40,663 nt of DNA from an uncultured Actinomycetes bacterium (GTDB lineage Bacteria > Chloroflexota > Dormibacteria > CF-121): NCBI GenBank assembly GCA_964601135.1, contig CAZRMD010000003.1:1-40663 (forward strand). The letters run 5' to 3'. Of this stretch, positions 11,190 through 26,232 are shown in pieces. Position numbers and translations under genes: made by a program. The notes under the pieces are model-generated. The model was given only the letters and a program-made list of their open reading frames with translations. It had not been told where the DNA came from and did no database searches. The stretch's first letter is position 1. Each line of letters begins with the position of its first letter.

Positions 11190-12383
11190 ATGGGCTCCGC
11201 CTGGACGAGCTACCTGCGAAATCTCGACTGCACCGCCTGTGGTGCCGAATTCGACGCCGACACCACACGGGGCGTCTGCGCGAAATGCGGAAAAGTCCTC
11301 TTCGCTCGCTACGACCTTGCCGCCGTCAAGGCGGCAGTCTCGCCGCATGATTTCGCGGGGCGGCCGTGGAACCTGTGGCGCTATCGCGAGCTGCTGCCAG
11401 TCCGCAAGCCCAGCAACCTGGTGACCCTTGGCGAAGGCATGACCCCGCTTCTCCCCGTCAGTCAACACGTGGCGACGTCACTCGGATTCCCAGCTGGCCG
11501 GCTATCCATCAAGGAAGAAGGAAAGAATCCAACCGGGAGCTTCAAGGCGCGCGGCATGGCGGTCGCCATCTCGAAGGCGAAGGAGCTGGGCATCGCTGAC
11601 GTCGCCCTCCCGAGTGCGGGCAACGCGGGTTCTGCAGCCGCCGCCTACGCAGCAGCCGCGGGCATTAGAGCGCACATCGCTGTGCCGCGCGATGTCCCGC
11701 CGGTCAACCTGGTCGAGATGCGATTGAGCGGCGCGGACGTCATCCTGGTCGACGGATTGATCGACGAGGCCGGGCGTCTCATCCATCAACTGGCGGTCGA
11801 ACACGGATGGTTCGAGCTCGCCACGCTGAAGGAACCGTATCGTCAGGAAGGGAAGAAGACGATCGGCTTCGAGCTGGCCGAACAGCGCGGCTGGGGTGCC
11901 GACGCGCTGCCGGATGTCATCGTCTTTCCGACGGGAGGTGGCACTGGGATCGTCGGCATGTGGAAGGCATTCGATGAGCTCGGTGCACTTGGTTGGATTG
12001 GCCCGAAGCGTCCGAAGATGGTGGTCGTGCAGGCGGCAGGTTGCGCGCCGCTGGTGCGCGCATTCGAGCAAGGTGCCGATCATGCCGAACCGTGGCTCAA
12101 CGCCTCGACCATCGCTGCTGGCATTCGGGTGCCGTCCGCCATTGGCGACTATCTGGTGCTGCAAGCGATTCGGGAGAGTTGGGGGACGGCCATCGCCGTT
12201 ACCGACAGCGACATCCAGAACGCGCAACTGGAGATCGCCCGCGATGCCGGGATCTACACCGGCCCCGAGGGTGCCGCGACCTGGGCGGCGTTGAAGACGC
12301 TACGACAGAACGGCTTCCTCACGGGCGATGAGGATGTCGTTCTGTTCTCAACCAGCATCGGGACGAAGTACCCGGCGCCGTAA
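11190..12383 (+). CDS. thrC: Threonine synthase (PLP-dependent, N-terminal Zn ribbon)
   Basis: TLGEGMTPL, NPTGSFKARG (PLP lysine), SAGNAG, EGKKTIGFEL, PTGGG. Confidence 0.88.
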   Translation: MGSAWTSYLRNLDCTACGAEFDADTTRGVCAKCGKVLFARYDLAAVKAAVSPHDFAGRPWNLWRYRELLPVRKPSNLVTLGEGMTPLLPVSQHVATSLGFPAGRLSIKEEGKNPTGSFKARGMAVAISKAKELGIADVALPSAGNAGSAAAAYAAAAGIRAHIAVPRDVPPVNLVEMRLSGADVILVDGLIDEAGRLIHQLAVEHGWFELATLKEPYRQEGKKTIGFELAEQRGWGADALPDVIVFPTGGGTGIVGMWKAFDELGALGWIGPKRPKMVVVQAAGCAPLVRAFEQGADHAEPWLNASTIAAGIRVPSAIGDYLVLQAIRESWGTAIAVTDSDIQNAQLEIARDAGIYTGPEGAATWAALKTLRQNGFLTGDEDVVLFSTSIGTKYPAP

Positions 12384-12450
12384 TGCGTACATCCGAAGGT
12401 GACGGTCCCAAATCTCTGCGGCCTCTCGGTTGGGGGCAAGATTCATAGCA

Positions 12451-15633: not shown

Positions 15634-18423
15634 CTAGGCTGGCCGGCCAGCCTGGGCGTGGGCCGGTTCAGGCTCGTGGGCACCGGCGAATCGATGGGCC
15701 AGCTCGGTACGGGATCGGATTGAAAGCTTGGCATAGATGTGACTCAGATGCGCCTCAACGGTCTTCGGACTGAGGAATAGCTCGGTCGCTACTTCTCGAT
15801 TGGTGGCGCCCTCGGCGACCTTCATTGCGATTTGCAACTCCTGGACCGTCAGATCTTCGACCGCTCCAGTCTTGACCCGATCGAGCGACTCGCCGGTGGC
15901 TCGAAGCTCGTCCTGGGTGCGATCAACCCAGCACGAAGCGCCTAACTGTTGGAAGACGTCGAGCGCCGCATGCAGCCGTTCGCGAGCTTCGGCGCGTCGT
16001 CGCGCTCGTCGCAACCGCTCGCCATAGCAGAGCTCGGTGCGGGCACGCTCAAAAGGCGTCGGCGTGTGCGCATGCCAGTTCAGCGCCTCTTCAAACGCCA
16101 CGGCGAAGTCGGCTTCGGCAAGCAGTCCTCGACACCGTGCTGCGGCCGCCTTCGCCCAGCTTCGGTTGGTGTTGTCAGCCTGGAATTGGAGGAGGTCCAG
16201 GCCAGCCGTCGCCCGAGCTCGGTCGCCGACATGGACGTATGCCTCAATCAAATTCGGCAGGGATTGAAACAGAGCCGGTTCCTGCATCTGTTCAGCGGCC
16301 AGTATGTCCTCGAGCGGAGACTGCGCGGCGATCGCCGCCGTGGGCCGCCGCAGTCCGAGCTCGAGGAGACCCGTAATCGCTGCGGCGTAGGCTCCCATGG
16401 TCAGACCGAGCGGACCATACATCGTCATGGCCTCCGCGAGGTGTGCCTTGCATTCGGCGTCCCGCCCCTGGCCTGCCTCGACCCATGCCATGCAGCACAG
16501 GGCATAGACCAATGCGTTGGTCTGACCAAGCTCCCGGGCCAGTCCGGCCGCTTCAGCCGCGCCGGCGTAAGCCGCCTGCCAGCGACCCATTCGAAAGTCG
16601 ACCTCCGAAAGGTGACCGAGAGGGTAGGGGAGAGCGCCCGGGGCGCTGATGGCGCGAGCTCGGTTGATCAGGCGCTCGAGTGAGGCTCGCGCCCGTTCGA
16701 ACTCTTCCAGCCAGAGGAGGACCACCGAACAGTGGGCGAGCTGAAGTTCGAGCCAGATAGAGTCGGCCTGCTCGATGAAGGCGTGTCCCTGCGATAGAAG
16801 CGGATAACCTTCCTGGAGGCGCCCCAGCAGGATCAGCGTTTTCCCTAGCAAGCCTTTGGCTGCCGCTTCTGCGACTCCGCCGAGACCGTTGCTGAGCTCG
16901 AAAGCCCGTCGGGAGGCTTTCAGCGCCGGCTGCAGCACACCCTCAACCGGATCTCCCTCCTGGTGGCACGTGGTGGCGGCGTCCACCAATATCAGTGCCG
17001 CCTTCTCGCGGTCGAGCGGCTCGATGCTTTCGGCCGCCGGTAGAAGCAGCTTGCGGGCCGCTGCGGGTGAGCCAGTCCACATTTCGATCCGCCCCTGGGT
17101 GTGAAGAACCTCGACACGCATACGCAGATCGCTGGTGTGCTCGAGCGCCTGGTTCAGCAGTTCGAGTCCATGCGCCGAAGAGCCGGCCACATGGGCGTCG
17201 CCCGCCGCCTCGAGCAGCCTGCGCGCTCGGTTGATCGGAGCGGGCGAAAGCCGGGCCGCCCGTTCGAATGTCACCGAGGCTGCCGCATGGGCGCTACGGC
17301 GGCGCGCCTCCCACGCGGCACTTTCCAGGGCGCTGGCAGTGTCTTCGTCCTCGCCGGTGGCGGCAGCAGCAAGATGCCAGGCCCGTGCGCTTGCTGCCTC
17401 CGATAGGTACCGGGCTAGGGCCTGATGAACGGCGCGTCTCGCCGGAGCCGACGCACGGTGGTAAGCCGCGGCCCTGATCAAGGGATGTTCAAATCGAATC
17501 CGCTGGCCGTCGTTGCTGATCAGTCCAGCCTCCTCGGCAATGTCCAGCGCCGCAAAGTCAACATTCAAGCTTTGACATGCCTGGCGTACTTCCGTCGAAG
17601 ACCCGGACTGAGAGGCTGCGCAGATGAGCAGCGCCGTCTGGGTTGCCGCGGGTATCGTCGCGATCCGTCGCTCAAATGATCGCAAGATGGAAGAACCTGC
17701 GGGCAGCGGGTCAGTGAGCGGCTCGGCGCCTGATAGCTGGTCGGGACGTAAAACCCGCGAGACCTCAATGATGGCCAGTGGGTTGCCGCCGGTCGCAGCG
17801 TGAACCTGTTCCGCGACCGGTCTCTTTACGGTGCTGGGCGCGGAAGACTCGAGAAGCCGGCGAGAGGATTCGAAATCCAGGCCGGTGAGCACAATGTCGG
17901 GGATGCCGGGCGCCTCAACGACTTCCGGTTCGCCAGTGCGCACGGCAAACACCATGGCAACGGCGTCCGCGTCCAGCCGCCGAGCAGCAAACAGGATCGC
18001 CCTCAGCGATGCGCTGTCCAGCCATTGAGCATCATCGACGATAACGAGTACCGGTCTGGCCTCGGCCGCAGCTGCGATAAATCCAAGCGTGGCAGCGGCT
18101 ACGGTGAAGCGATCGCCTGCCGGCGGACCTAGGGCGAGCGCACCTCTAAGCGCGGCGGCCTGTGGAGCCGGAAGCTTCCCCATCTGCCCGAGCACCGGAT
18201 GCAGTAGTTCCGAGAGTCCGGAAAACGGTAGCTCGGATTCAACCTCGATACCGGTCGCGCTGAGTACTTGCATGGAGGAGGCGCTAGTCGCGGCGCTCTT
18301 TAAGAGGGCGCTTTTCCCGATCCCCGGCTCGCCACGGATGATCAAGGTTCCGCTTCTGCCGTTCCTCGCCTGGTGGAGCAGCCGCTCGATGGCGGCTTGC
18401 TCGGCGCCCCTCCCCAGGAGCAT
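15634..18423 (-). CDS. Large ATP-binding LuxR-family (LAL) transcriptional regulator
   Basis: Walker A GEPGIGKS, Walker B VIVDDAQWLD, GGNPLAI, C-terminal LTVQELQIA...LFLSPKTVEAHLSHIYAKL. Confidence 0.94.
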   Translation of the reverse strand: MLLGRGAEQAAIERLLHQARNGRSGTLIIRGEPGIGKSALLKSAATSASSMQVLSATGIEVESELPFSGLSELLHPVLGQMGKLPAPQAAALRGALALGPPAGDRFTVAAATLGFIAAAAEARPVLVIVDDAQWLDSASLRAILFAARRLDADAVAMVFAVRTGEPEVVEAPGIPDIVLTGLDFESSRRLLESSAPSTVKRPVAEQVHAATGGNPLAIIEVSRVLRPDQLSGAEPLTDPLPAGSSILRSFERRIATIPAATQTALLICAASQSGSSTEVRQACQSLNVDFAALDIAEEAGLISNDGQRIRFEHPLIRAAAYHRASAPARRAVHQALARYLSEAASARAWHLAAAATGEDEDTASALESAAWEARRRSAHAAASVTFERAARLSPAPINRARRLLEAAGDAHVAGSSAHGLELLNQALEHTSDLRMRVEVLHTQGRIEMWTGSPAAARKLLLPAAESIEPLDREKAALILVDAATTCHQEGDPVEGVLQPALKASRRAFELSNGLGGVAEAAAKGLLGKTLILLGRLQEGYPLLSQGHAFIEQADSIWLELQLAHCSVVLLWLEEFERARASLERLINRARAISAPGALPYPLGHLSEVDFRMGRWQAAYAGAAEAAGLARELGQTNALVYALCCMAWVEAGQGRDAECKAHLAEAMTMYGPLGLTMGAYAAAITGLLELGLRRPTAAIAAQSPLEDILAAEQMQEPALFQSLPNLIEAYVHVGDRARATAGLDLLQFQADNTNRSWAKAAAARCRGLLAEADFAVAFEEALNWHAHTPTPFERARTELCYGERLRRARRRAEARERLHAALDVFQQLGASCWVDRTQDELRATGESLDRVKTGAVEDLTVQELQIAMKVAEGATNREVATELFLSPKTVEAHLSHIYAKLSIRSRTELAHRFAGAHEPEPAHAQAGRPA

Positions 18424-18499: not shown

Positions 18500-18543
18500 G
18501 CGGACGTCGCAGTCCACCTTTGCTGAATTCGGGGAGGCGTGGG

Positions 18544-20628
18544 ATGAAGGCGCGGGCCAGTGTTCTCATCGCTTTGGCCTCCTTGTTGATGACCTCGTGC
18601 GATGCCGGAAGCAATTCGACACGAGTCAACTACTGGGGTGGGAAGCCTCCGGATCCGAATGTCCATTTGAGCGCTTTGCCAGTTTCTCTCGATGAACCAC
18701 CAGGTTCTCCCGATCAAGCAGCGACAACTCTAGCCACGAAAGTGCTCGCCAGAGATCAGGACTCGTTGCCCGCTCTTCTCCGCGCCCTCACCGACGGAGG
18801 ATACTCGGTAACGGACGCTGATGGATCGATGGTCTTACCGGCCAGTGAAGACCTCGGTCTCAATGTGCAGCACTGGGAAGTTGAGCAGCTTAGCCGACCG
18901 GGCAGCAGCCAGTTTTACTTGAGCCTTGCGGAACTGGCTTCCATCATGGATATACCAATGCCCCAGATGCCGTCAAACGATCTCGCGGCGGCGCTCCTTC
19001 AGGACATTCGCGACGGCGCTCAGAGTGACGCCCCGAAGCTCCGATTCTGGTCGCATTTCATGCTGGAAATGGGACGGCTTGGGCCATTCGGCGGCGACCT
19101 ACTGACGGCCGCGTCTCCCGCCGAGGTCCACCTCAATCAGATTCAGGTTCTGCTTCTGGTCCATCGGCTTGCCGCCGGCCTTCAGGTTGATGCGGATGTC
19201 GCTCCGCAGGCCAATAAGCCACCTCCATTGTGGGCCGCTCTATGGCCACCTGTAACTGATGCTGAGGCGGCGGACTGGAGTGCATGTAATCCGAAGACGG
19301 AAGAGAAACCTCCATCAGGCCGCGCGGCCGACAGCGCGAAGGAAATTGGGCTAAGCGCTGCCAAGAAATTCATCAAGGATCAAGTGAAAAAAGCGTCAGG
19401 CCTCGTTAAGACGGTAAGCACCATCACGAAGTATGCGAACCAGTTACTCGCTTGGAACGAACTGGCCTTGACCGAGTCAGCATTGAACATTGACATCGCA
19501 ATGGACGACTTCTCAACGGCCGCCCATCGCCCCCTGCTGCGGACTAGAAGTTCGAGCGTTGATCTGGAGTCAAGGCAGTTACTGGCTAGAGTCCATATGG
19601 ACACGGGGGATAAACAAGAGATCAATTGCCTGCGTGACGTATTGTCCAAATATGGGATCGACTACAAGGTCCCAAAGGATGGCCTCCTCCGCGGAGTAGA
19701 GACGAATTGGGAGCTTATGGAGGGAGGCGTATCGGGTGCTGCCGGCGGCAGCGCAACCCTAAAGAGAGGTTTCCTGATTTTCGACAACCAGGGCGGCCGC
19801 TTTGACCAGACAAGAAACAAAACGAACGACAAGACGGGAGTAGCGACGCAAGGCATTAGGGGCAAGCGTCAAAGCACAGACATCCCTTCTACAGCCCCCC
19901 CTTTTCGCCGGCAGGGTACCGTCTTAGTGGGCGTGCGACTTAAAGGAGGAGACATCTATGAAGATCTTGGGAGTGCCGCCAAAAACGCGCTATCGGGTCC
20001 AGCCGCGTTGCTGGGTCGATTCCCCGTTGAGATGTTGTATCGCACCTCGTTCAACGGAGCAACCGAATACTCGTTCCCGGTGATCGATTACTTAGACAGA
20101 TTGAAAGTGGACGGCACCTATCTGGCTGACACAGTCCCAGGATGGCACTGCACGCCATGCGTGTCGCATGTCGATATGTCCTACTCCGGCGTTATGACCT
20201 TTGACACGAAGAATTTTAGCTTTCAGGGAAGCGGTCAAGCTCAGATAAACGTGGTCTCTGTGTGGCCCCGGGATAAGTGCTCAGTTGCAGACTCCGCGAC
20301 TATCCCCATCCACCTCCAGGGGATACTGCGCGGTGATCATTTGAGCGTCTTCGCGACACAAGAGCCGGTGAATGCGGGCGTAAACTTGCGAATGTGTGAG
20401 CCGGGTTCCCAGATCACCGCCTCCTCGTGCAATCCTTTTATTCAACCGGTCGATGTTTCAACCAGCGATTCAGCGGAAGGGGTAGTCGACGGCTACGACG
20501 ACGGTGACAACTCCCTTGTGCAAAAGGGCTTAAAGGGACTTAGTTGTGAAACTTGGGGGAAACCACCGGGTAGCGGTCCGGCGATGAAGCACACTTGGAA
20601 GGTCGTCCTGAGTGCCCCTTCAGATTGA
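18544..20628 (+). CDS. Large hypothetical lipoprotein (about 694 aa)
   Basis: GGGGAGG RBS; MKARASVLIALASLLMTSC lipobox; long open frame, visibly more AT-rich than its neighbours; Cys-containing C-terminal domain. Confidence 0.8.
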   Translation: MKARASVLIALASLLMTSCDAGSNSTRVNYWGGKPPDPNVHLSALPVSLDEPPGSPDQAATTLATKVLARDQDSLPALLRALTDGGYSVTDADGSMVLPASEDLGLNVQHWEVEQLSRPGSSQFYLSLAELASIMDIPMPQMPSNDLAAALLQDIRDGAQSDAPKLRFWSHFMLEMGRLGPFGGDLLTAASPAEVHLNQIQVLLLVHRLAAGLQVDADVAPQANKPPPLWAALWPPVTDAEAADWSACNPKTEEKPPSGRAADSAKEIGLSAAKKFIKDQVKKASGLVKTVSTITKYANQLLAWNELALTESALNIDIAMDDFSTAAHRPLLRTRSSSVDLESRQLLARVHMDTGDKQEINCLRDVLSKYGIDYKVPKDGLLRGVETNWELMEGGVSGAAGGSATLKRGFLIFDNQGGRFDQTRNKTNDKTGVATQGIRGKRQSTDIPSTAPPFRRQGTVLVGVRLKGGDIYEDLGSAAKNALSGPAALLGRFPVEMLYRTSFNGATEYSFPVIDYLDRLKVDGTYLADTVPGWHCTPCVSHVDMSYSGVMTFDTKNFSFQGSGQAQINVVSVWPRDKCSVADSATIPIHLQGILRGDHLSVFATQEPVNAGVNLRMCEPGSQITASSCNPFIQPVDVSTSDSAEGVVDGYDDGDNSLVQKGLKGLSCETWGKPPGSGPAMKHTWKVVLSAPSD

Positions 20629-20716: not shown

Positions 20717-21273
20717 TCAGTTGGTCGGTGAGTCCGGGGTCCCGTTGCTGAGACCGGCTTGCAACTCACGGATGATCGTGCCCAGTTGGCCCGAAGCGAG
20801 CAGCCCCGGGCGGAGAGGACCTGACGAGTTTTCGCCGATAGGCGGAAGGCCTCGCAGGGCGGCTCGAACCTCTGTTGACATATGGGTGAGCTGCCAGCGG
20901 ATCTCGTCGTTGACGACTTCTGGCCGGCCCGGTGCTGCGAGGCCGGCGGCTTTGGCGGCATAAGCGGCGGCGCCCAGTGCGTGCGCGCCCATGTGGCAGA
21001 TGGCTACGGCTTGACCGGCGGCTCGGGCAGCAGCCAGTGCGGCGGGATCTTTTACATCACTGGCAGGGACGCCACCGGCGAATCGACGGCGAATTTCCTC
21101 GGCAGTGTTTAGTTCTCCGCGGGCGAACGCGCGGGTCCGGGCGATAGCCGCGCGAGGGCGGTCATCACCTGGAGCTTCGGTCTCGAACAGCCCCAGAACC
21201 CGCTCGGCACAGTCAGCCGCCCATGCGGCGACAAGACGTCGGTCAGCTTCGCTAGCGTCTGCGGGGATCTCAC
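20717..21273 (-). pseudogene. Imm-5-like putative immunity protein, 1-nt frameshift near the 5' end
   Basis: GTG start gives MRSPQTL. The long frame SEADRRLVAAWAADCAERVLGLFE...DDRPRAAI...AARAAGQAVAICHMGAHALGAAAYA is offset by one base near 21253. This could be an assembly indel. Confidence 0.7.
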
Positions 21274-21329: not shown

Positions 21330-21875
21330 TCAGCCAGAAGCCACCGGATCTTGCCGATCGGGGCGGTCAAGATGGCCTCGTGCTCGGAAGGAGCGCTCAC
21401 TGAGAGCCGCATAACGGTGGGCCGCCATCGAGTGTGCCTCCGCAAGTAAGGGCTTTATCGATTCGAAAGTCTTTGCGGACGGATTGAGCACACAAACCCA
21501 ATGGTTACCGCCATACAGGGGGTGTGGCATGACAACGTCGAGCTGCGAGAAGTCGGGCGTCTCGGCCTCGGACGGAAAGAGAGAATCGTAGGTCTTACGG
21601 CTCACGCCGATGTTCAGCCGGTAAACCCCCTTCCTGTTCAGATCGGAAAGGTTGTCAAACTCCCCGTAGTCCTGACTCACGATGGTTGCGAAGGGAAACT
21701 TGCTCGCACCCTCCAGCCGTCGCTCGGGGTCATAGAAAAAGAAGGTTGTTCCCCAGGACACCTCAGGAGCGCCGTTCTCTTTCGAGGCGATGACAACATC
21801 GACCCCACTAAGCGAGGAGATGTACTCGCTGATAACCCCTTCTTCGAGTGCCCGGGCTGCCATCGCATCCTTCAC
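21330..21875 (-). CDS. DUF6194-like protein
   Basis: WGTTFFFYDP, FPFATIV, SDLNRKGVYRLNIGV, MPHPLYGGNHWVCVLNPS. Confidence 0.78.
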   Translation of the reverse strand: MKDAMAARALEEGVISEYISSLSGVDVVIASKENGAPEVSWGTTFFFYDPERRLEGASKFPFATIVSQDYGEFDNLSDLNRKGVYRLNIGVSRKTYDSLFPSEAETPDFSQLDVVMPHPLYGGNHWVCVLNPSAKTFESIKPLLAEAHSMAAHRYAALSERSFRARGHLDRPDRQDPVASG

Positions 21876-21908: not shown

Positions 21909-22334
21909 TCATGATGGCAGGTCGAGTAGGTCGAGACCGCTCGCAGGATCCCGCACCCGACGCACGCGCGCGGCTTCCGTCCTGACCCAGACTTCCAGCG
22001 TTGGATGCACCCGGCCCTCCTGAACGTGCCCGCCAATCACGGCGTAGTCCGACCGCCCGAACACGCCGTGGACGTGAGGGAATGGCTTGTCATCCTTGAG
22101 TGCGGTGTTGCCCTGGAAGCTCAAGACCTCGAGCTGCTCCTTGAAGTCCCGGTATGAATAGGACCGCGTGGTGGCGTTCCAGTAACCAAGGGTCACCGAC
22201 TGGAAGGCGCCGGTAGCACTCAAGAAGGCAAAGTCGATCTCCTCGTCACTCAGGAATTTTCTGAGCGTCTCCATCGCGGACTCGCCGCTTTCCAGGCGCA
22301 ACATGTAGCGATCCCCAAATTGCTTGAACCTCAT
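21909..22334 (-). CDS. PPC/DUF296 domain protein
   Basis: LRLESGE, EVLSFQGN, PHVHGVFG, GGHV, PTLEV. It overlaps the upstream stop (ATGA). Confidence 0.88.
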   Translation of the reverse strand: MRFKQFGDRYMLRLESGESAMETLRKFLSDEEIDFAFLSATGAFQSVTLGYWNATTRSYSYRDFKEQLEVLSFQGNTALKDDKPFPHVHGVFGRSDYAVIGGHVQEGRVHPTLEVWVRTEAARVRRVRDPASGLDLLDLPS

Positions 22335-23029
22335 GCCACGGCCTCTGACTCCGTCAAGCGGCGGCGAATATCATCGGCAGTGGCCAGCCCGATCAGCTCT
22401 CCATCGGAGGTCGTGACCAGGGCGTAGCCGAGGTGGTGATCGGCCAGATAGCGGTCCACCTCCTCCAGACCTGCGTTGGGCCGAAACGTAACTGGTCCTT
22501 TGAGCATTGCATCCTCGACCGTCCTGGAGGCATTCGACTGGATGTCATTACTCCTGAGCAGTCCCAGCACGATGCGATGCTCGTTGACGACGACGCAGGG
22601 ACTGGTTGAAGCGGACGTCAGCCGCGCCTTAACCTCACTGATGCGCTCATCGAGCTTGCACGTTGGACTGTCACGCCGCGCCAGCGTGCCGAGGTTCGGG
22701 ACGCCTGCCTTTGTCCCCTCCGTTGGAAGGCCCACGGAAACCCAGTCGAGCTTGCCCGGAGGGTAGTCGAAGACCTTGGTGAAGCCGAGACTCTCGAGCC
22801 GCCACGCGGCCCGCTTGCTCATGTCTCATTGGTAGTCGTAGCAGTAGGTGATGACAGGCCGGCTCTTGTCGAGCTTGCTGGTGGTAGTGCGATCGAGTTC
22901 CCGCAGCGGGATGCTGATGGCTCCGGGAAGATGCTCCTCCTCGTACTCCTGCGCAGGGAGAACCTCTACCAATTGCGCGCCTTCCCCCAGCAACTTCTGA
23001 AGCTGCGATCGATCGATGCTTGTCGGCAT
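22331..23029 (-). CDS. Rhodanese-CBS fusion protein, probable selenoprotein (232 aa, Sec68)
   Basis: Track ORFs 22826-23029 and 22331-22822 are in the same frame: ...ITYCYDYQ-TGA-DMSKRAAWRLESLGFTKVFDY. The TGA (22826-22828) falls inside the rhodanese active-site loop, and a hairpin follows. Confidence 0.8.
22795..22813 (-). promoter_or_regulatory. Candidate SECIS element (rhodanese-CBS)
   Basis: CGGGCCGC-GUG-GCGGCUCG; the G-initiated loop starts after a 20-nt spacer from the UGA; GAGAC/GUCUC can form a basal stem. Confidence 0.6.
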
Positions 23030-23057
23030 GGGCCAACCTCCTTTCTATGTGCCGGCG

Positions 23058-23225
23058 CTAGACCTGGTGCAAGGGACTGGCAATGACTCGGCGCACCGGC
23101 TCCGCGACAAAGCGATCGTGGCACCGTTGGGAACAGAAGTGGTGAATGCGCCCGGCAAACTCCCAGTACCACTTGGTGATCGTGGTCAAGTCCCTGCAGC
23201 AGTTCGCGCAGATGTCAGCCTGCAA
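23058..23225 (-). CDS. Small YHS/TRASH-like metal-binding protein (55 aa), absent from the ORF track
   Basis: AAGGAGG upstream of TTG: MQADICANCCRDLTTITKWYWEFAGRIHHFCSQRCHDRFVAEPVRRVIASPLHQV; FCSxxC motif. Confidence 0.65.
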   Translation of the reverse strand: MQADICANCCRDLTTITKWYWEFAGRIHHFCSQRCHDRFVAEPVRRVIASPLHQV

Positions 23226-23428: not shown

Positions 23429-23881
23429 TCAGGCCGCGACGCGCCGGGGAACGACGGTGCCGCGGGCTCTCACTTTCATAGACTCAATGGCCACCAACGC
23501 GATGGTCGCAGCCGCCAGGACGAAGTCTTTGAGCAGGAACTGCCCGGCCAGTGAAAGATATGGAAAGCCCTTGGTCCCATAGGTCACGCTCGCGGCGTCC
23601 ACGAAGATCGTCAGCGTGCCGGCGAAGAGGATCAAGATCAGCAACCCGACGTACCGAACGGCGACGCCGGCGACCAGCAAGATGCTGGCGGCGATTTCCA
23701 GTACCCCAACGGCATATACGAATCCGTTCGAGGCCAGGAACGGCAGCCCGGCGTGCAACAGGCCGACGACCGGACTGGGATCGGCAAACTTAAGGGCGCC
23801 AATCCAGAACAGGACGAGGCCGAGGCTGATGCGCAGGAGTGGCCCGGCGATCCGCTCGACCAATGTGAACAATTTCTCCAT
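23429..23881 (-). CDS. DoxX/DUF417 (YkgB/RclC-like) membrane protein
   Basis: LRISLGLVLFWIGALKF and GQFLLKDFVL motifs; AGGAGG RBS. Confidence 0.8.
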   Translation of the reverse strand: MEKLFTLVERIAGPLLRISLGLVLFWIGALKFADPSPVVGLLHAGLPFLASNGFVYAVGVLEIAASILLVAGVAVRYVGLLILILFAGTLTIFVDAASVTYGTKGFPYLSLAGQFLLKDFVLAAATIALVAIESMKVRARGTVVPRRVAA

Positions 23882-24451: not shown

Positions 24452-25159
24452 ATGGCCGAAGCGATCCTGGTGGTCGACGACGACGCGAAGATCGTCCGCC
24501 TCGTCCGGACCTACCTGGAGCGCGACGGCTTCGCGGTGGTCGCCGCGACGGATGGGCGGGCAGCGCTGCAAGCTATCCGGGAGCAGCCGCCCCGCCTCGT
24601 GGTCCTGGATTTGATGCTGCCGGAGCTCGACGGTCTGGCCCTCCTGCGCATCGTGCGAGAAGACTCTGACGTGCCGGTTTTGATGCTTTCCGCGCGTGGG
24701 TCCGCCGCTGACCGTGTTTATGGGATCAACGAGGGCGCCGACGACTACCTGGCCAAGCCGTTCTCCCCGGCTGAGCTGGTCGCGCGAGTCAAGTCCCTTC
24801 TGCGGCGCAGCAGTTCGGCGAGCCGGCAATCGTCTCGGCACGACGGAAGGCTCGTTTTCGACGACCTGGCCATCGATCTCGACCGGCACGAGGTCAAGCA
24901 ATCCGACCGGCCCGTGCCGCTCACCGCGGCCGAGTTTCGGCTTTTGAGCGCCCTGGTGCGCGCGGACGGCCGCGTGCTCACTCGTGAGCTCCTTCTCGAT
25001 GCGTTGTACGGCGCAGCGCCGGCCGACGCGCTCGACCGAACTATCGATGTCCACATCGGCAGGCTGCGAGAGAAACTCGGCGATGACGCCGAGCGTCCCC
25101 GCTACATCGCGACGGTCCGTGGGGCCGGATATCGGGTCGTCGGGCCGGCGAGCGAATGA
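24452..25159 (+). CDS. OmpR-family response regulator
   Basis: ILVVDDD, LDLMLP, GADDYLAKPF, RTIDVHIGRLREKL, TVRGAGY. Confidence 0.95.
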   Translation: MAEAILVVDDDAKIVRLVRTYLERDGFAVVAATDGRAALQAIREQPPRLVVLDLMLPELDGLALLRIVREDSDVPVLMLSARGSAADRVYGINEGADDYLAKPFSPAELVARVKSLLRRSSSASRQSSRHDGRLVFDDLAIDLDRHEVKQSDRPVPLTAAEFRLLSALVRADGRVLTRELLLDALYGAAPADALDRTIDVHIGRLREKLGDDAERPRYIATVRGAGYRVVGPASE

Positions 25160-26232
25160 TCCGGCGAGCGCTGCCCGGCCCGATGATGGTTCGCATCGCG
25201 ATCGCCACCCTGCTCGTGACCGCAGCAGCCGTGCTGGTGATCGCTGGAGGCGTGCTTATCGTCAGTCAGTCGCTTTTCCAGCGCCTGATGGAGGAACACG
25301 GCGCGAGTGCGGTCGCCGCCAGGGGCATGTTCGAGCAGACGGTTGGCACCGTCTTCCTGGTTGCCCTGGGGCTTGGCGCCGGGCTGAGCCTCGCGCTCGC
25401 CGTCATCCTGGCCCGTCAGCTGTCGCGTCCGCTCGAGCGCATTGGAGACGCGGCACGACAGCTGGCCGATGGCGATTACCGTGCCCGCGCCCAGCGACAG
25501 GGTCCTGATGAAGTGATCTCGCTGGCCGACTCGTTCAACCAGATGGCGGAAAGCCTGGAAGAGCAGGAGCGGCTGCGTCGCGAGTTCATCATCAACGCCG
25601 CGCACGAGTTGCGAACCCCGCTGACCAATCTGCAAGGCTACCTCGAAGCCCTGCGCGACAATGTGATCGCACCAGACCCGGAGGTCTTTGCCTCACTCCA
25701 TGAAGAGGTTGATCGTCTGGTGCGCCTGTCTCATTCACTCGATTTACTGGCCGAGGGAGGTTCACAGAGGAGCTCACATCCCCCGATCACGATGGACGTG
25801 ATCATCGCGATCCGCTCGGCGGTCGACCTCGCCAGGCCGGCATTCGATCGGCGCGGCATCACCATCGAAACTCGGCTACCAAGCGATGTCCAGGTGCGAA
25901 CCCACCCCGACCAGCTGGCCCAGGTGCTCGCGAACTTGTTGCAGAACGCCTCCCGCTACACACCGGAAGGCGGGCGGGTGACGGTGGCCGTCGAGACCAA
26001 TCCCACAGACGTGCTGATCAGCGTCTCCAACAGCGGCGATGGCATCCCCGCCACCGATCTGCCACACGTGTTCGAGCGTTTCTACCGCGTCGAGAAATCG
26101 AGAGACCGGGCCCGAGGTGGAGCAGGGATCGGACTGGCCATCGTCAAGCAGCTCGTTGAGTCGGCCGGCGGGCGGGTTGGCGTCGAGTCAGCCCCGGGCT
26201 TGACGCGGTTCTGGTTCACCGTGCCGGCCTGA
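25156..26232 (+). CDS. Membrane sensor histidine kinase with HAMP domain (BaeS-like)
   Basis: Two TM segments with a very short external loop, HAMP, AHELRTPL, NLLQNA, FERFYR, GAGIGL. Confidence 0.95.
   Translation: MIRRALPGPMMVRIAIATLLVTAAAVLVIAGGVLIVSQSLFQRLMEEHGASAVAARGMFEQTVGTVFLVALGLGAGLSLALAVILARQLSRPLERIGDAARQLADGDYRARAQRQGPDEVISLADSFNQMAESLEEQERLRREFIINAAHELRTPLTNLQGYLEALRDNVIAPDPEVFASLHEEVDRLVRLSHSLDLLAEGGSQRSSHPPITMDVIIAIRSAVDLARPAFDRRGITIETRLPSDVQVRTHPDQLAQVLANLLQNASRYTPEGGRVTVAVETNPTDVLISVSNSGDGIPATDLPHVFERFYRVEKSRDRARGGAGIGLAIVKQLVESAGGRVGVESAPGLTRFWFTVPA

Follow-up and report, generated by a model that had tools for sequence, protein, structure and literature searches.

The window analysed here, a 40,663-nt stretch of contig CAZRMD010000003.1 (assembly GCA_964601135.1) from an uncultured bacterium of the Dormibacteria, very probably carries a single 232-residue selenoprotein gene at positions 22331–23029 of the minus strand, in which a rhodanese domain is joined to a pair of CBS domains. 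The UGA at codon 68 would be decoded as selenocysteine (Sec) by SelA, SelB, SelD and tRNA-Sec under the direction of a hairpin that follows it; the catalytic cysteine of the rhodanese fold (Cys63) is kept, and Sec68 stands at the site of the arginine found five residues after that cysteine in classical rhodaneses (the +5 Arg). This decoding, taken together with a proposed Cys63–Sec68 dyad, is likely to be the best explanation of the locus as a whole, and the function of the protein is something that we infer, with good motivation, from its sequence. The gene almost certainly belongs to a large and mostly unannotated family of soil-bacterial selenoproteins. Its parts, in the order of transcription, are:

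23037–23041, minus strand: Shine–Dalgarno-like GGAGG, 7 nt before the start ATG (read from the sequence)
23027–23029, minus strand: start ATG of the rhodanese-CBS gene
22331–23029, minus strand: whole rhodanese-CBS gene, 232 codons with predicted Sec at codon 68 (translated with TGA as U)
22739–23008, minus strand: rhodanese homology domain, residues 8–97 (Pfam PF00581, 51.1 bits against a cut-off of 22.2; Foldseek match to 3nhv)
22841–22843, minus strand: TGC codon of Cys63, which stands at the canonical catalytic position of rhodaneses (no exception among 109 genes; aligned with the cysteine of the ICHSGQRS loop)
22826–22828, minus strand: in-frame UGA, codon 68, predicted to be read as selenocysteine (cysteine in homologs, codon conservation, soil contigs)
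22814–22825, minus strand: 12-nt spacer between the UGA and the hairpin
22795–22813, minus strand: putative selenocysteine insertion sequence (SECIS) hairpin CGGGCCGC-GUG-GCGGCUCG, an 8-bp GC-rich stem with a GUG loop (folding energy −13.1 kcal/mol; synonymous constraint)
22334–22693, minus strand: CBS pair (Bateman module), residues ∼113–232 (PF00571; Foldseek matches to CBS-pair structures; AlphaFold2 model)
22331–22333, minus strand: terminal TGA stop of the rhodanese-CBS gene

Reading frame and decoding of codon 68

The upstream open reading frame (ORF) of 67 codons (22826–23029 when listed with its stop, minus strand) ends in ...RPVITYCYDYQ before the TGA, and the same frame then runs on as DMSKRAAWRLESLGFTKVFDYPPGKLDW... 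up to the terminal stop, which gives a readthrough product of 232 residues. Because the Pfam Rhodanese match spans the TGA, the 67-residue product holds only part of the fold, as the initial annotation of this locus had proposed; the frame, the Pfam hits and the fold matches likewise bear out its further claim that the whole interval is one gene encoding a rhodanese-CBS fusion.

Proteins related to this product were sought in a collection of 5.8 billion sequences, which yielded 2129 relatives. Among the best 120 of these, 72 are full-length rhodanese-CBS proteins, and 48 are CBS-only proteins of 156–171 residues whose match is confined to the sequence beyond the TGA, since gene callers split the TGA forms at that point. 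Alignment of 27 of the 72 full-length, uninterrupted homologs places cysteine at column 68 in 25, arginine in one and tryptophan in one, while Cys63 is invariant, so that the cysteine expected at this column from the initial annotation is indeed the usual residue. The two exceptions are P0019 and P0031, the latter with tryptophan; from the amino acids only, we infer that their codons may be CGA and TGG, each a single base from TGA.

The codon itself is conserved at the DNA level in other selenocysteine users. A search of 61 related genomes returned 46 full-length matches in 41 genomes, each with exactly one TGA (two also include a TAA), and a scan of one genome per species returned 281 stretches that encode a relative, among the best 80 of which codon 68 is TGA in 78, TGC in one (L071) and not parsed in one. 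The record labels of these species-representative loci span Actinomycetota, Chloroflexota, Rokubacteria, Dormiibacterota, Eisenbacteria, Gemmatimonadales and Bacillota. Within the class of the TGC-form genome, 13 of 301 genomes gave a match, and 14 of the 15 matches have TGA. When the stretches were pooled (117, of which 111 passed filters and 109 were unique genes after removal of duplicates), TGA was found at codon 68 in 108 and TGC in one; among the 108 is L110, whose genome is flagged as unpublished. Chance does not account for a TGA at one and the same codon in all but one of 109 unique homologous genes. Either a family made up consistently of two separate genes or one without cysteine at this position would have spoken against a fused selenoprotein, and neither was encountered. 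One TGA form (L094) is labelled as the archaeon Candidatus Nitrosopolaris sp. and groups in the tree described below with L100 and L107, both labelled Chloroflexi; its contig is probably mis-binned rather than archaeal.

Cysteine forms and selenocysteine forms do not separate cleanly by descent. In an unrooted FastTree phylogeny of 144 rows (115 Sec, 27 Cys and 2 other, the trait column masked, with two long-branch rows that are unreliable), the Cys forms are scattered among the Sec forms and at least 16 changes are required; well-supported branches alone force at least five changes for the Sec label.

The UGA is followed by a hairpin with the properties expected of a bacterial SECIS element. 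The model used by bSECISearch, as given in a figure legend, specifies a loop of 3–9 nt with a G within the first two loop positions, a stem of 4–16 bp, a distance from UGA to loop of 16–37 nt and a minimum free energy of at most −7.5 kcal/mol (PMC13188914, Fig. 2 legend). The hairpin at 22795–22813, with 20 nt from UGA to loop, satisfies all four of the constraints quoted there. It resembles the bacterial consensus in its 3-nt apical loop starting with G-U, its 8-bp stem, its spacing and its energy, and differs from it in being unusually invariant in sequence across phyla. In the genome of this bacterium, the UGAs of selD and of a MerB-like gene likewise have a hairpin beyond a spacer of 12 nt. 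A search of the whole window against Rfam gave no family at its gathering threshold.

The strongest evidence for a SECIS function is a constraint on synonymous sites that is confined to the codons of the hairpin arms. Across the 109 genes, synonymous entropy is 0.08 bits at Ala74 (GCC), 0.00 at Ala75 (GCG), 0.08 at Arg77 (CGG) and 0.15 at Leu78 (CTC), as against 1.0–2.15 bits at every other conserved fourfold or sixfold degenerate codon. Deviations from these arm codons number 3 of 464 in 116 Sec genes and 3 of 16 in four Cys genes (Fisher's exact test, 5.7e-4, on a small sample of related sequences). This control is small because a metagenome scan for DNA of the Cys form produced 12 loci that comprised just three Cys forms, eight Sec forms and one distant relative.

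The source genome, a metagenome-assembled genome (MAG) of 512 contigs (82.7 per cent complete, 5.07 per cent contaminated, 64 per cent GC), holds the complete set of genes that selenocysteine insertion would require: a search of this genome located SelA and SelB adjacent to each other on contig C38, SelD on C11 and tRNA-Sec on C197. The selD gene (C11, ∼11489–12418, plus strand) has an in-frame TGA of its own (HGAG-TGA-ACK), with a hairpin beginning 12 nt downstream. A second, partial SelA match, which covers the first 73 profile positions and lies at a contig end (C278, 5–223, minus strand), was also observed, perhaps a piece left over from assembly or a sequence contributed by a co-binned strain. 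SelA is present in 38 of the 41 related genomes carrying the TGA form, whereas all seven SelA-less genomes of other genera are without the rhodanese-CBS gene, and SelA was not found in the TGC-form genome.

Independent DNA agrees with the assembled sequence. The gene stretch is present in 20 soil-metagenome runs from 12 studies, nine of which runs are possible sources of this assembly; four runs not marked as possible sources were compared. In two of the four, the TGA is bridged by contigs that match the window exactly (22781–23029 in one run and 22784–23029 in the other), and no variant at 22826–22828 appeared in any of the four. Summed contig depth over 22763–22834, which includes the hairpin and the loop, exceeds that over the remainder of the gene 5- to 100-fold in these runs, since numerous other organisms contribute contigs that match the conserved hairpin (∼70 nt at ≥90 per cent identity). 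Several loose ends of those foreign contigs, when translated by eye, again show TGA.

Several observations weigh against decoding by such a hairpin or qualify its support. The hairpin arms are nearly invariant and show almost no compensatory covariation, the sole variation being A-U to G-U at one pair; since the arms hardly vary, support for the SECIS element comes from synonymous constraint and not from covariation. An intact hairpin is kept in two of the four Cys-form genes, which would reflect either recent conversion or another constraint on the same codons. The whole 96-nt segment around the UGA folds no better than shuffled sequences (z = −0.12), which leaves the local hairpin and the constraint on codons as the only informative features. 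Three of the 41 TGA-form genomes yielded no SelA; these are incomplete MAGs (75–93 per cent complete) of a genus with SelA in 26 of 29 genomes.

The alternatives to selenocysteine are in a poor position. If the TGA were a true stop, the locus would be a nonsense pseudogene or two genes, one for a 67-residue peptide and one for a 163-residue CBS protein. Gene callers do divide the gene in this manner, 48 of the best 120 protein matches begin just past the TGA, and an ATG occurs two codons beyond it. However, no Shine–Dalgarno-like site comparable to that of the start codon was seen on inspection of the sequence before this internal ATG (at 22822), the TGA is followed by the constrained hairpin, both halves are conserved across phyla in the genes that share the TGA, the rhodanese fold crosses the TGA, and uninterrupted homologs have cysteine there. 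A true stop is accordingly very improbable. That TGA has been recoded as tryptophan or glycine, or arose by sequencing or assembly error, is more improbable still and scarcely to be credited: the single uninterrupted homolog with tryptophan at column 68 is the one point in its favor, whereas homologs in general have cysteine rather than tryptophan or glycine, the selenocysteine machinery is complete, and identical contigs from other soil runs carry the TGA. Because TGA also ends this gene and the ordinary rhodanese genes of its relatives, it has not been globally reassigned.

Domain architecture and the active-site loop

Pfam PF00571 detects only the second CBS repeat (residues 171–225, 46.2 bits, cut-off 24), while the C-terminal ∼120 residues superpose on the full CBS pairs of AcuB, CBSX1 and MgtE (Foldseek E-values of 1e-9 to 1e-7), with a template-modelling score of 0.84 on the target for CBSX1 (4gqv). 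Two tandem CBS repeats are accordingly present as judged by fold. The AlphaFold2 model, built from a 28-row alignment, has a mean pLDDT of 91.4 and a pTM of 0.74, and in it residues 63–69 form a coil between a strand (59–62) and a helix (70–80).

This coil is the active-site loop, Y62-C63-Y-D65-Y-Q-U68-D69, and the family motif around it reads Y-C-x-D-x-x-U-D-[LMIV]-[SA]-x-R-A-A. Y62, C63, D65, U68, D69 and R73 are invariant in the 109 genes, and further cysteines are conserved at positions 124 (92 per cent) and 145 (82 per cent). This genome and its relatives also encode canonical rhodaneses (loop ICHSGQRS) and rhodaneses of the C-x4-C type (YCRGPYC); in an alignment of the domain with both kinds, Cys63 fell on the catalytic cysteine and Sec68 on the +5 Arg, with gaps as placed by MAFFT; the C-x4-C/U group has two extra loop residues relative to the classical loop. 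The earlier suggestions that the canonical cysteine is retained and that Sec is a second loop residue beside it are both upheld, Sec68 lying five residues further on in the same loop. The classical six-residue cationic loop (C-x-x-G-x-R/S) is not what is found here, since this loop is two residues longer, carries D65 and D69 and has Sec at the +5 Arg site. Sixteen weaker rhodanese matches in related genomes, flagged as containing one or two TGAs, were considered as single-domain Sec forms and rejected: 11 showed a rhodanese frame, either canonical (ICHSGQRS) or C-x4-C (YCRGPYC), and their TGAs are ordinary stops; the other five candidates gave no rhodanese frame.

The closest known relative of the rhodanese half, both by sequence (E 1.7e-11) and by structure (root-mean-square deviation of 1.5 Å over 109 columns, 32 per cent identity), is BH2092 of Bacillus halodurans (PDB 3NHV/3O3W), a single-domain C-x4-C rhodanese. 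Its segment ITYCWGPACNGATKAA pairs without gaps with ITYCYDYQ[U]DMSKRAA and has cysteine at both positions (ITYCWGPAC...). BH2092 differs in having cysteine in place of Sec, in lacking a CBS pair and in having a loop without the two aspartates. It is a structural-genomics entry, for which the literature search found a methods paper only and no functional paper. Classical sulfurtransferases such as GlpE, PspE and YgaP (loop C-x-x-G-x-R/S) share the fold, with the catalytic cysteine ending the same strand, whereas the loop of the present family is two residues longer and acidic, with Sec at their +5 Arg site. The CBS half superposes on the Bateman modules of AcuB, CBSX1/2 and the cytosolic domain of MgtE; no solved or described CBS protein joined to a rhodanese was found in the searches.

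Rhodanese-like selenoproteins have been divided into five forms, namely UxxS (form 1), UxxG (forms 2 and 4), CxU (form 3, NF041203) and UxxxxU (form 5, TsoB, a rhodanese/DsbD fusion), as set out in the available text of PMC13188914, and neither a CBS pair nor a C-x4-U motif figures in the description of any form listed there. TsoB (NF045694) is similar in its rhodanese Sec loop and its x4 spacing but has U-x4-U and is fused to a DsbD-like part, whereas the present protein has one Sec and no DsbD part; rhodanese_LYCAU (NF041203) is similar in that a cysteine is kept and Sec is added downstream, but its motif is C-x-U rather than C-x4-U. The written motif of form 1, UxxS, fits the U-D-M-S found here when the written motifs are compared (PMC13188914, available text). 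No model of NCBIfam release 20 came near its cut-off, the best scores being those of MoeB (33.9 against 449 bits), TsoB (30.7 against 805) and LYCAU (21.5 against 115), and GlpE (20.8 against 102) and PspE (22.8 against 126.3) were also below theirs. As these scores lie so far under the cut-offs, the gene is placed by its sequence outside curated forms 3 and 5, and would work most like them, in that the rhodanese loop gains a Sec or holds it as one of a pair.

Older surveys, as far as their available text goes, list rhodanese-related sulfurtransferases without the rhodanese-CBS architecture (PMC1088965, PMC1976440, PMC2398784, PMC9312934, PMC1794560, PMC12013277). The term 'CBS' does not occur in the accessible texts of PMC13188914, PMC1976440, PMC2398784, PMC9312934 and PMC12013277, and the supplementary tables of PMC13188914 and PMC12013277 may list the family. 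A literature search found no paper joining selenoprotein, CBS domain and rhodanese, and one on rhodanese-CBS fusions returned only papers that are unrelated by title and abstract. Among the sources searched, then, there is no rhodanese selenoprotein in which the catalytic cysteine is kept and Sec lies five residues on, and none that is joined to CBS domains.

Gene neighbourhood and further copies

The genes that flank the rhodanese-CBS gene in the window are:

21330–21875, minus strand: DUF6194 gene
21909–22334, minus strand: PCC-domain gene, downstream, whose ATG overlaps the rhodanese-CBS stop as ATGA (PF03479, 94.8 bits)
23058–23225, minus strand: 55-residue Cys/His-rich ORF, upstream, separated by 28 nt from the rhodanese-CBS gene (weak likeness to YHS, at 23 bits against a cut-off of 30.3, and to DUF3330; a lead only)
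23429–23881, minus strand: DoxX/DUF417-like gene

Because start and stop overlap, the rhodanese-CBS and PCC-domain genes are probably co-transcribed. The 55-residue ORF has a TTG start and an in-frame TGA six codons upstream of it; YHS-domain proteins are a listed selenoprotein family in the available text of PMC13188914. None of these four neighbours recurs at other loci of the family. Further away in the window lie a 702-residue ORF with a signal-peptide-like start and no Pfam match (18520–20628, plus strand), an adjoining gene for a 929-residue AAA_16/LuxR-type (STAND-like) regulator (15634–18423, minus strand) and an Imm5-like fragment (20717–20992).

Neighbours across the family were surveyed by clustering the ORFs within 2.5 kb of the 109 loci, many of which are cut short. 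No family-wide conserved operon was found in these loci, the commonest neighbour cluster occurring at 13 of 109. Mercury-resistance or thiol-redox genes are neighbours at 18 loci, and MerA-like or MerB genes at nine, in several phyla. A thioredoxin-like 'DF family (seleno)protein' (NF049942, 94.7 bits, cut-off 70) is a neighbour in seven loci, in five of which its gene lies directly upstream on the same strand, and in four of these it overlaps the start of the rhodanese-CBS gene; DsbD_2-like membrane proteins are neighbours in eight, a point of likeness to TsoB with its DsbD-like part.

Two more TGA copies are present in the same genome, one 88 per cent identical (C43, 8426–9115, plus strand) and one 47 per cent identical (C16, 18936–19619, minus strand). 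The C43 copy, in which one arm of the hairpin has CGA in place of CGG, is preceded by TlpA-like, DsbD-like and AhpC/TSA-like genes and faces MerB-MerR-MerA; this MerA, 1.8 kb away, is the only one in the genome to score above its cut-off (567 against 454 bits). The C16 copy follows a pirin gene and lies beside a DUF3175 gene, and pirin is likewise found with the same-genus copies of the same neighbour cluster.

Elsewhere in the genome a MerB-family ORF (C15, ∼24868–25527, plus strand; PF03243, 89.4 bits) has an in-frame TGA at 25309. By eye, this TGA falls at the cysteine position of the MerB of another locus (...SFC-H-F-V-H-F-F...), and after the 12-nt spacer it is followed by a 7-bp hairpin with a GGUC loop. 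Judged from its sequence, the ORF may be a MerB-like selenoprotein.

Proposed chemistry and its significance

The following mechanism would be consistent with the loop and its surroundings. Sec is very probably inserted co-translationally at codon 68, directed by the 8-bp hairpin. Cys63 and Sec68, both within the enlarged and acidic loop of the rhodanese domain, would then act as a dyad towards a thiophilic substrate. The first step would be the uptake by Cys63 of either sulfane sulfur or a soft metal, for example Hg(II); Sec68 would attack or chelate the captured species, forming a selenenylsulfide or an S–metal–Se bridge; and the product would be handed on, after which thioredoxin-like or DsbD-like partners would reset the dyad. 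An anionic substrate is argued against by the invariant Asp65 and Asp69, which replace cationic residues of the thiosulfate sulfurtransferases. This dyad chemistry, with its reset by partner proteins, is put forward tentatively, as a possibility somewhat short of probable. The CBS pair, as its fold suggests, probably gates the active site on an adenosine-containing ligand. The name 'energy-sensing sulfur/selenium transferase' that had been attached to the protein at first is no more than a label; the loop does not have the cationic residues of classical sulfurtransferases, and the recurrent neighbours point to thiol-redox chemistry and mercury handling rather than to energy sensing.

Several observations count against this mechanism. 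Within the family, conservation is not strong at the residues with which the CBS pair would bind its ligand, and it is only partial at the motif residues of the pair; 91 of the 109 loci have no mer or thiol-redox neighbour within 2.5 kb, and the copy in the window is among those without one; the names of the neighbour clusters rest on one representative each; and the 88 per cent 'paralog' on C43 may come from a co-binned strain, given the 5 per cent contamination of the MAG.

Two other accounts accept Sec at codon 68 and differ in what it does. The protein could be a plain sulfurtransferase in which Sec68 is the sole nucleophile, passing through an intermediate of the perselenosulfide type, and Cys63 either has a structural role or can be dispensed with, the gain being faster transfer from thiosulfate or persulfide under CBS regulation. 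Known rhodanese selenoproteins mostly exchange the catalytic cysteine for Sec (UxxS, UxxG), according to the available text of PMC13188914. The U-D-M-S of the present loop fits the first of these motifs, and the Pfam Rhodanese match is well above its cut-off. Yet it is Cys63, and not Sec68, that aligns with the catalytic cysteine and is invariant in all 109 genes, and the acidic loop, with D65 and D69, has no +5 Arg, a residue that in classical rhodanese enzymes serves anionic donors. A sole-nucleophile role for Sec68 is on balance unlikely. Alternatively, the loop could chelate Hg(II) or the product of an organomercurial and pass it to MerA or MerB, as a soft-metal chaperone with no redox turnover of its own. 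The nine loci with MerA-like or MerB neighbours, the position of the genome's only above-cut-off MerA beside the C43 copy and the MerB-like gene with its in-frame TGA and hairpin all favor such a role, and several predicted selenoproteins have been implicated in mercury and arsenic resistance (PMC13188914, available text). The remaining 100 of 109 loci, that in the window included, have neither MerA nor MerB nearby, however, and the thiol-redox neighbours suit a redox role equally well; a pure chaperone is therefore also an unlikely account.

With the Cys63–Sec68 dyad retained as the preferred mechanism, a more specific and quite doubtful idea is that the Cys-x-Asp-x-x-Sec-Asp loop is a selenol site for Hg(II) or other thiophilic metals, and that the family is an unrecognised mer accessory in soil Actinomycetota, Chloroflexota, Dormiibacterota, Rokubacteria and others. 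If it were true, the family, together with the MerB-like gene that has a UGA at the catalytic-cysteine position, would suggest that mercury handling in soil bacteria can depend on selenium.

The family itself is large, with at least 281 confirmed loci in species-representative genomes, and is found in aerobic soil phyla. Nearly every genomic locus examined has the Sec form, an unusual situation given that Cys homologs are numerous in most families of selenoproteins. Since gene callers split the gene, as in the 48 CBS-only proteins among the best 120 matches, public annotation probably hides many copies, and a curated model would correct them. A rhodanese loop that pairs cysteine with selenocysteine, together with recurrent mer and thiol-redox neighbours, offers a testable lead on the role of selenium in soil bacteria.

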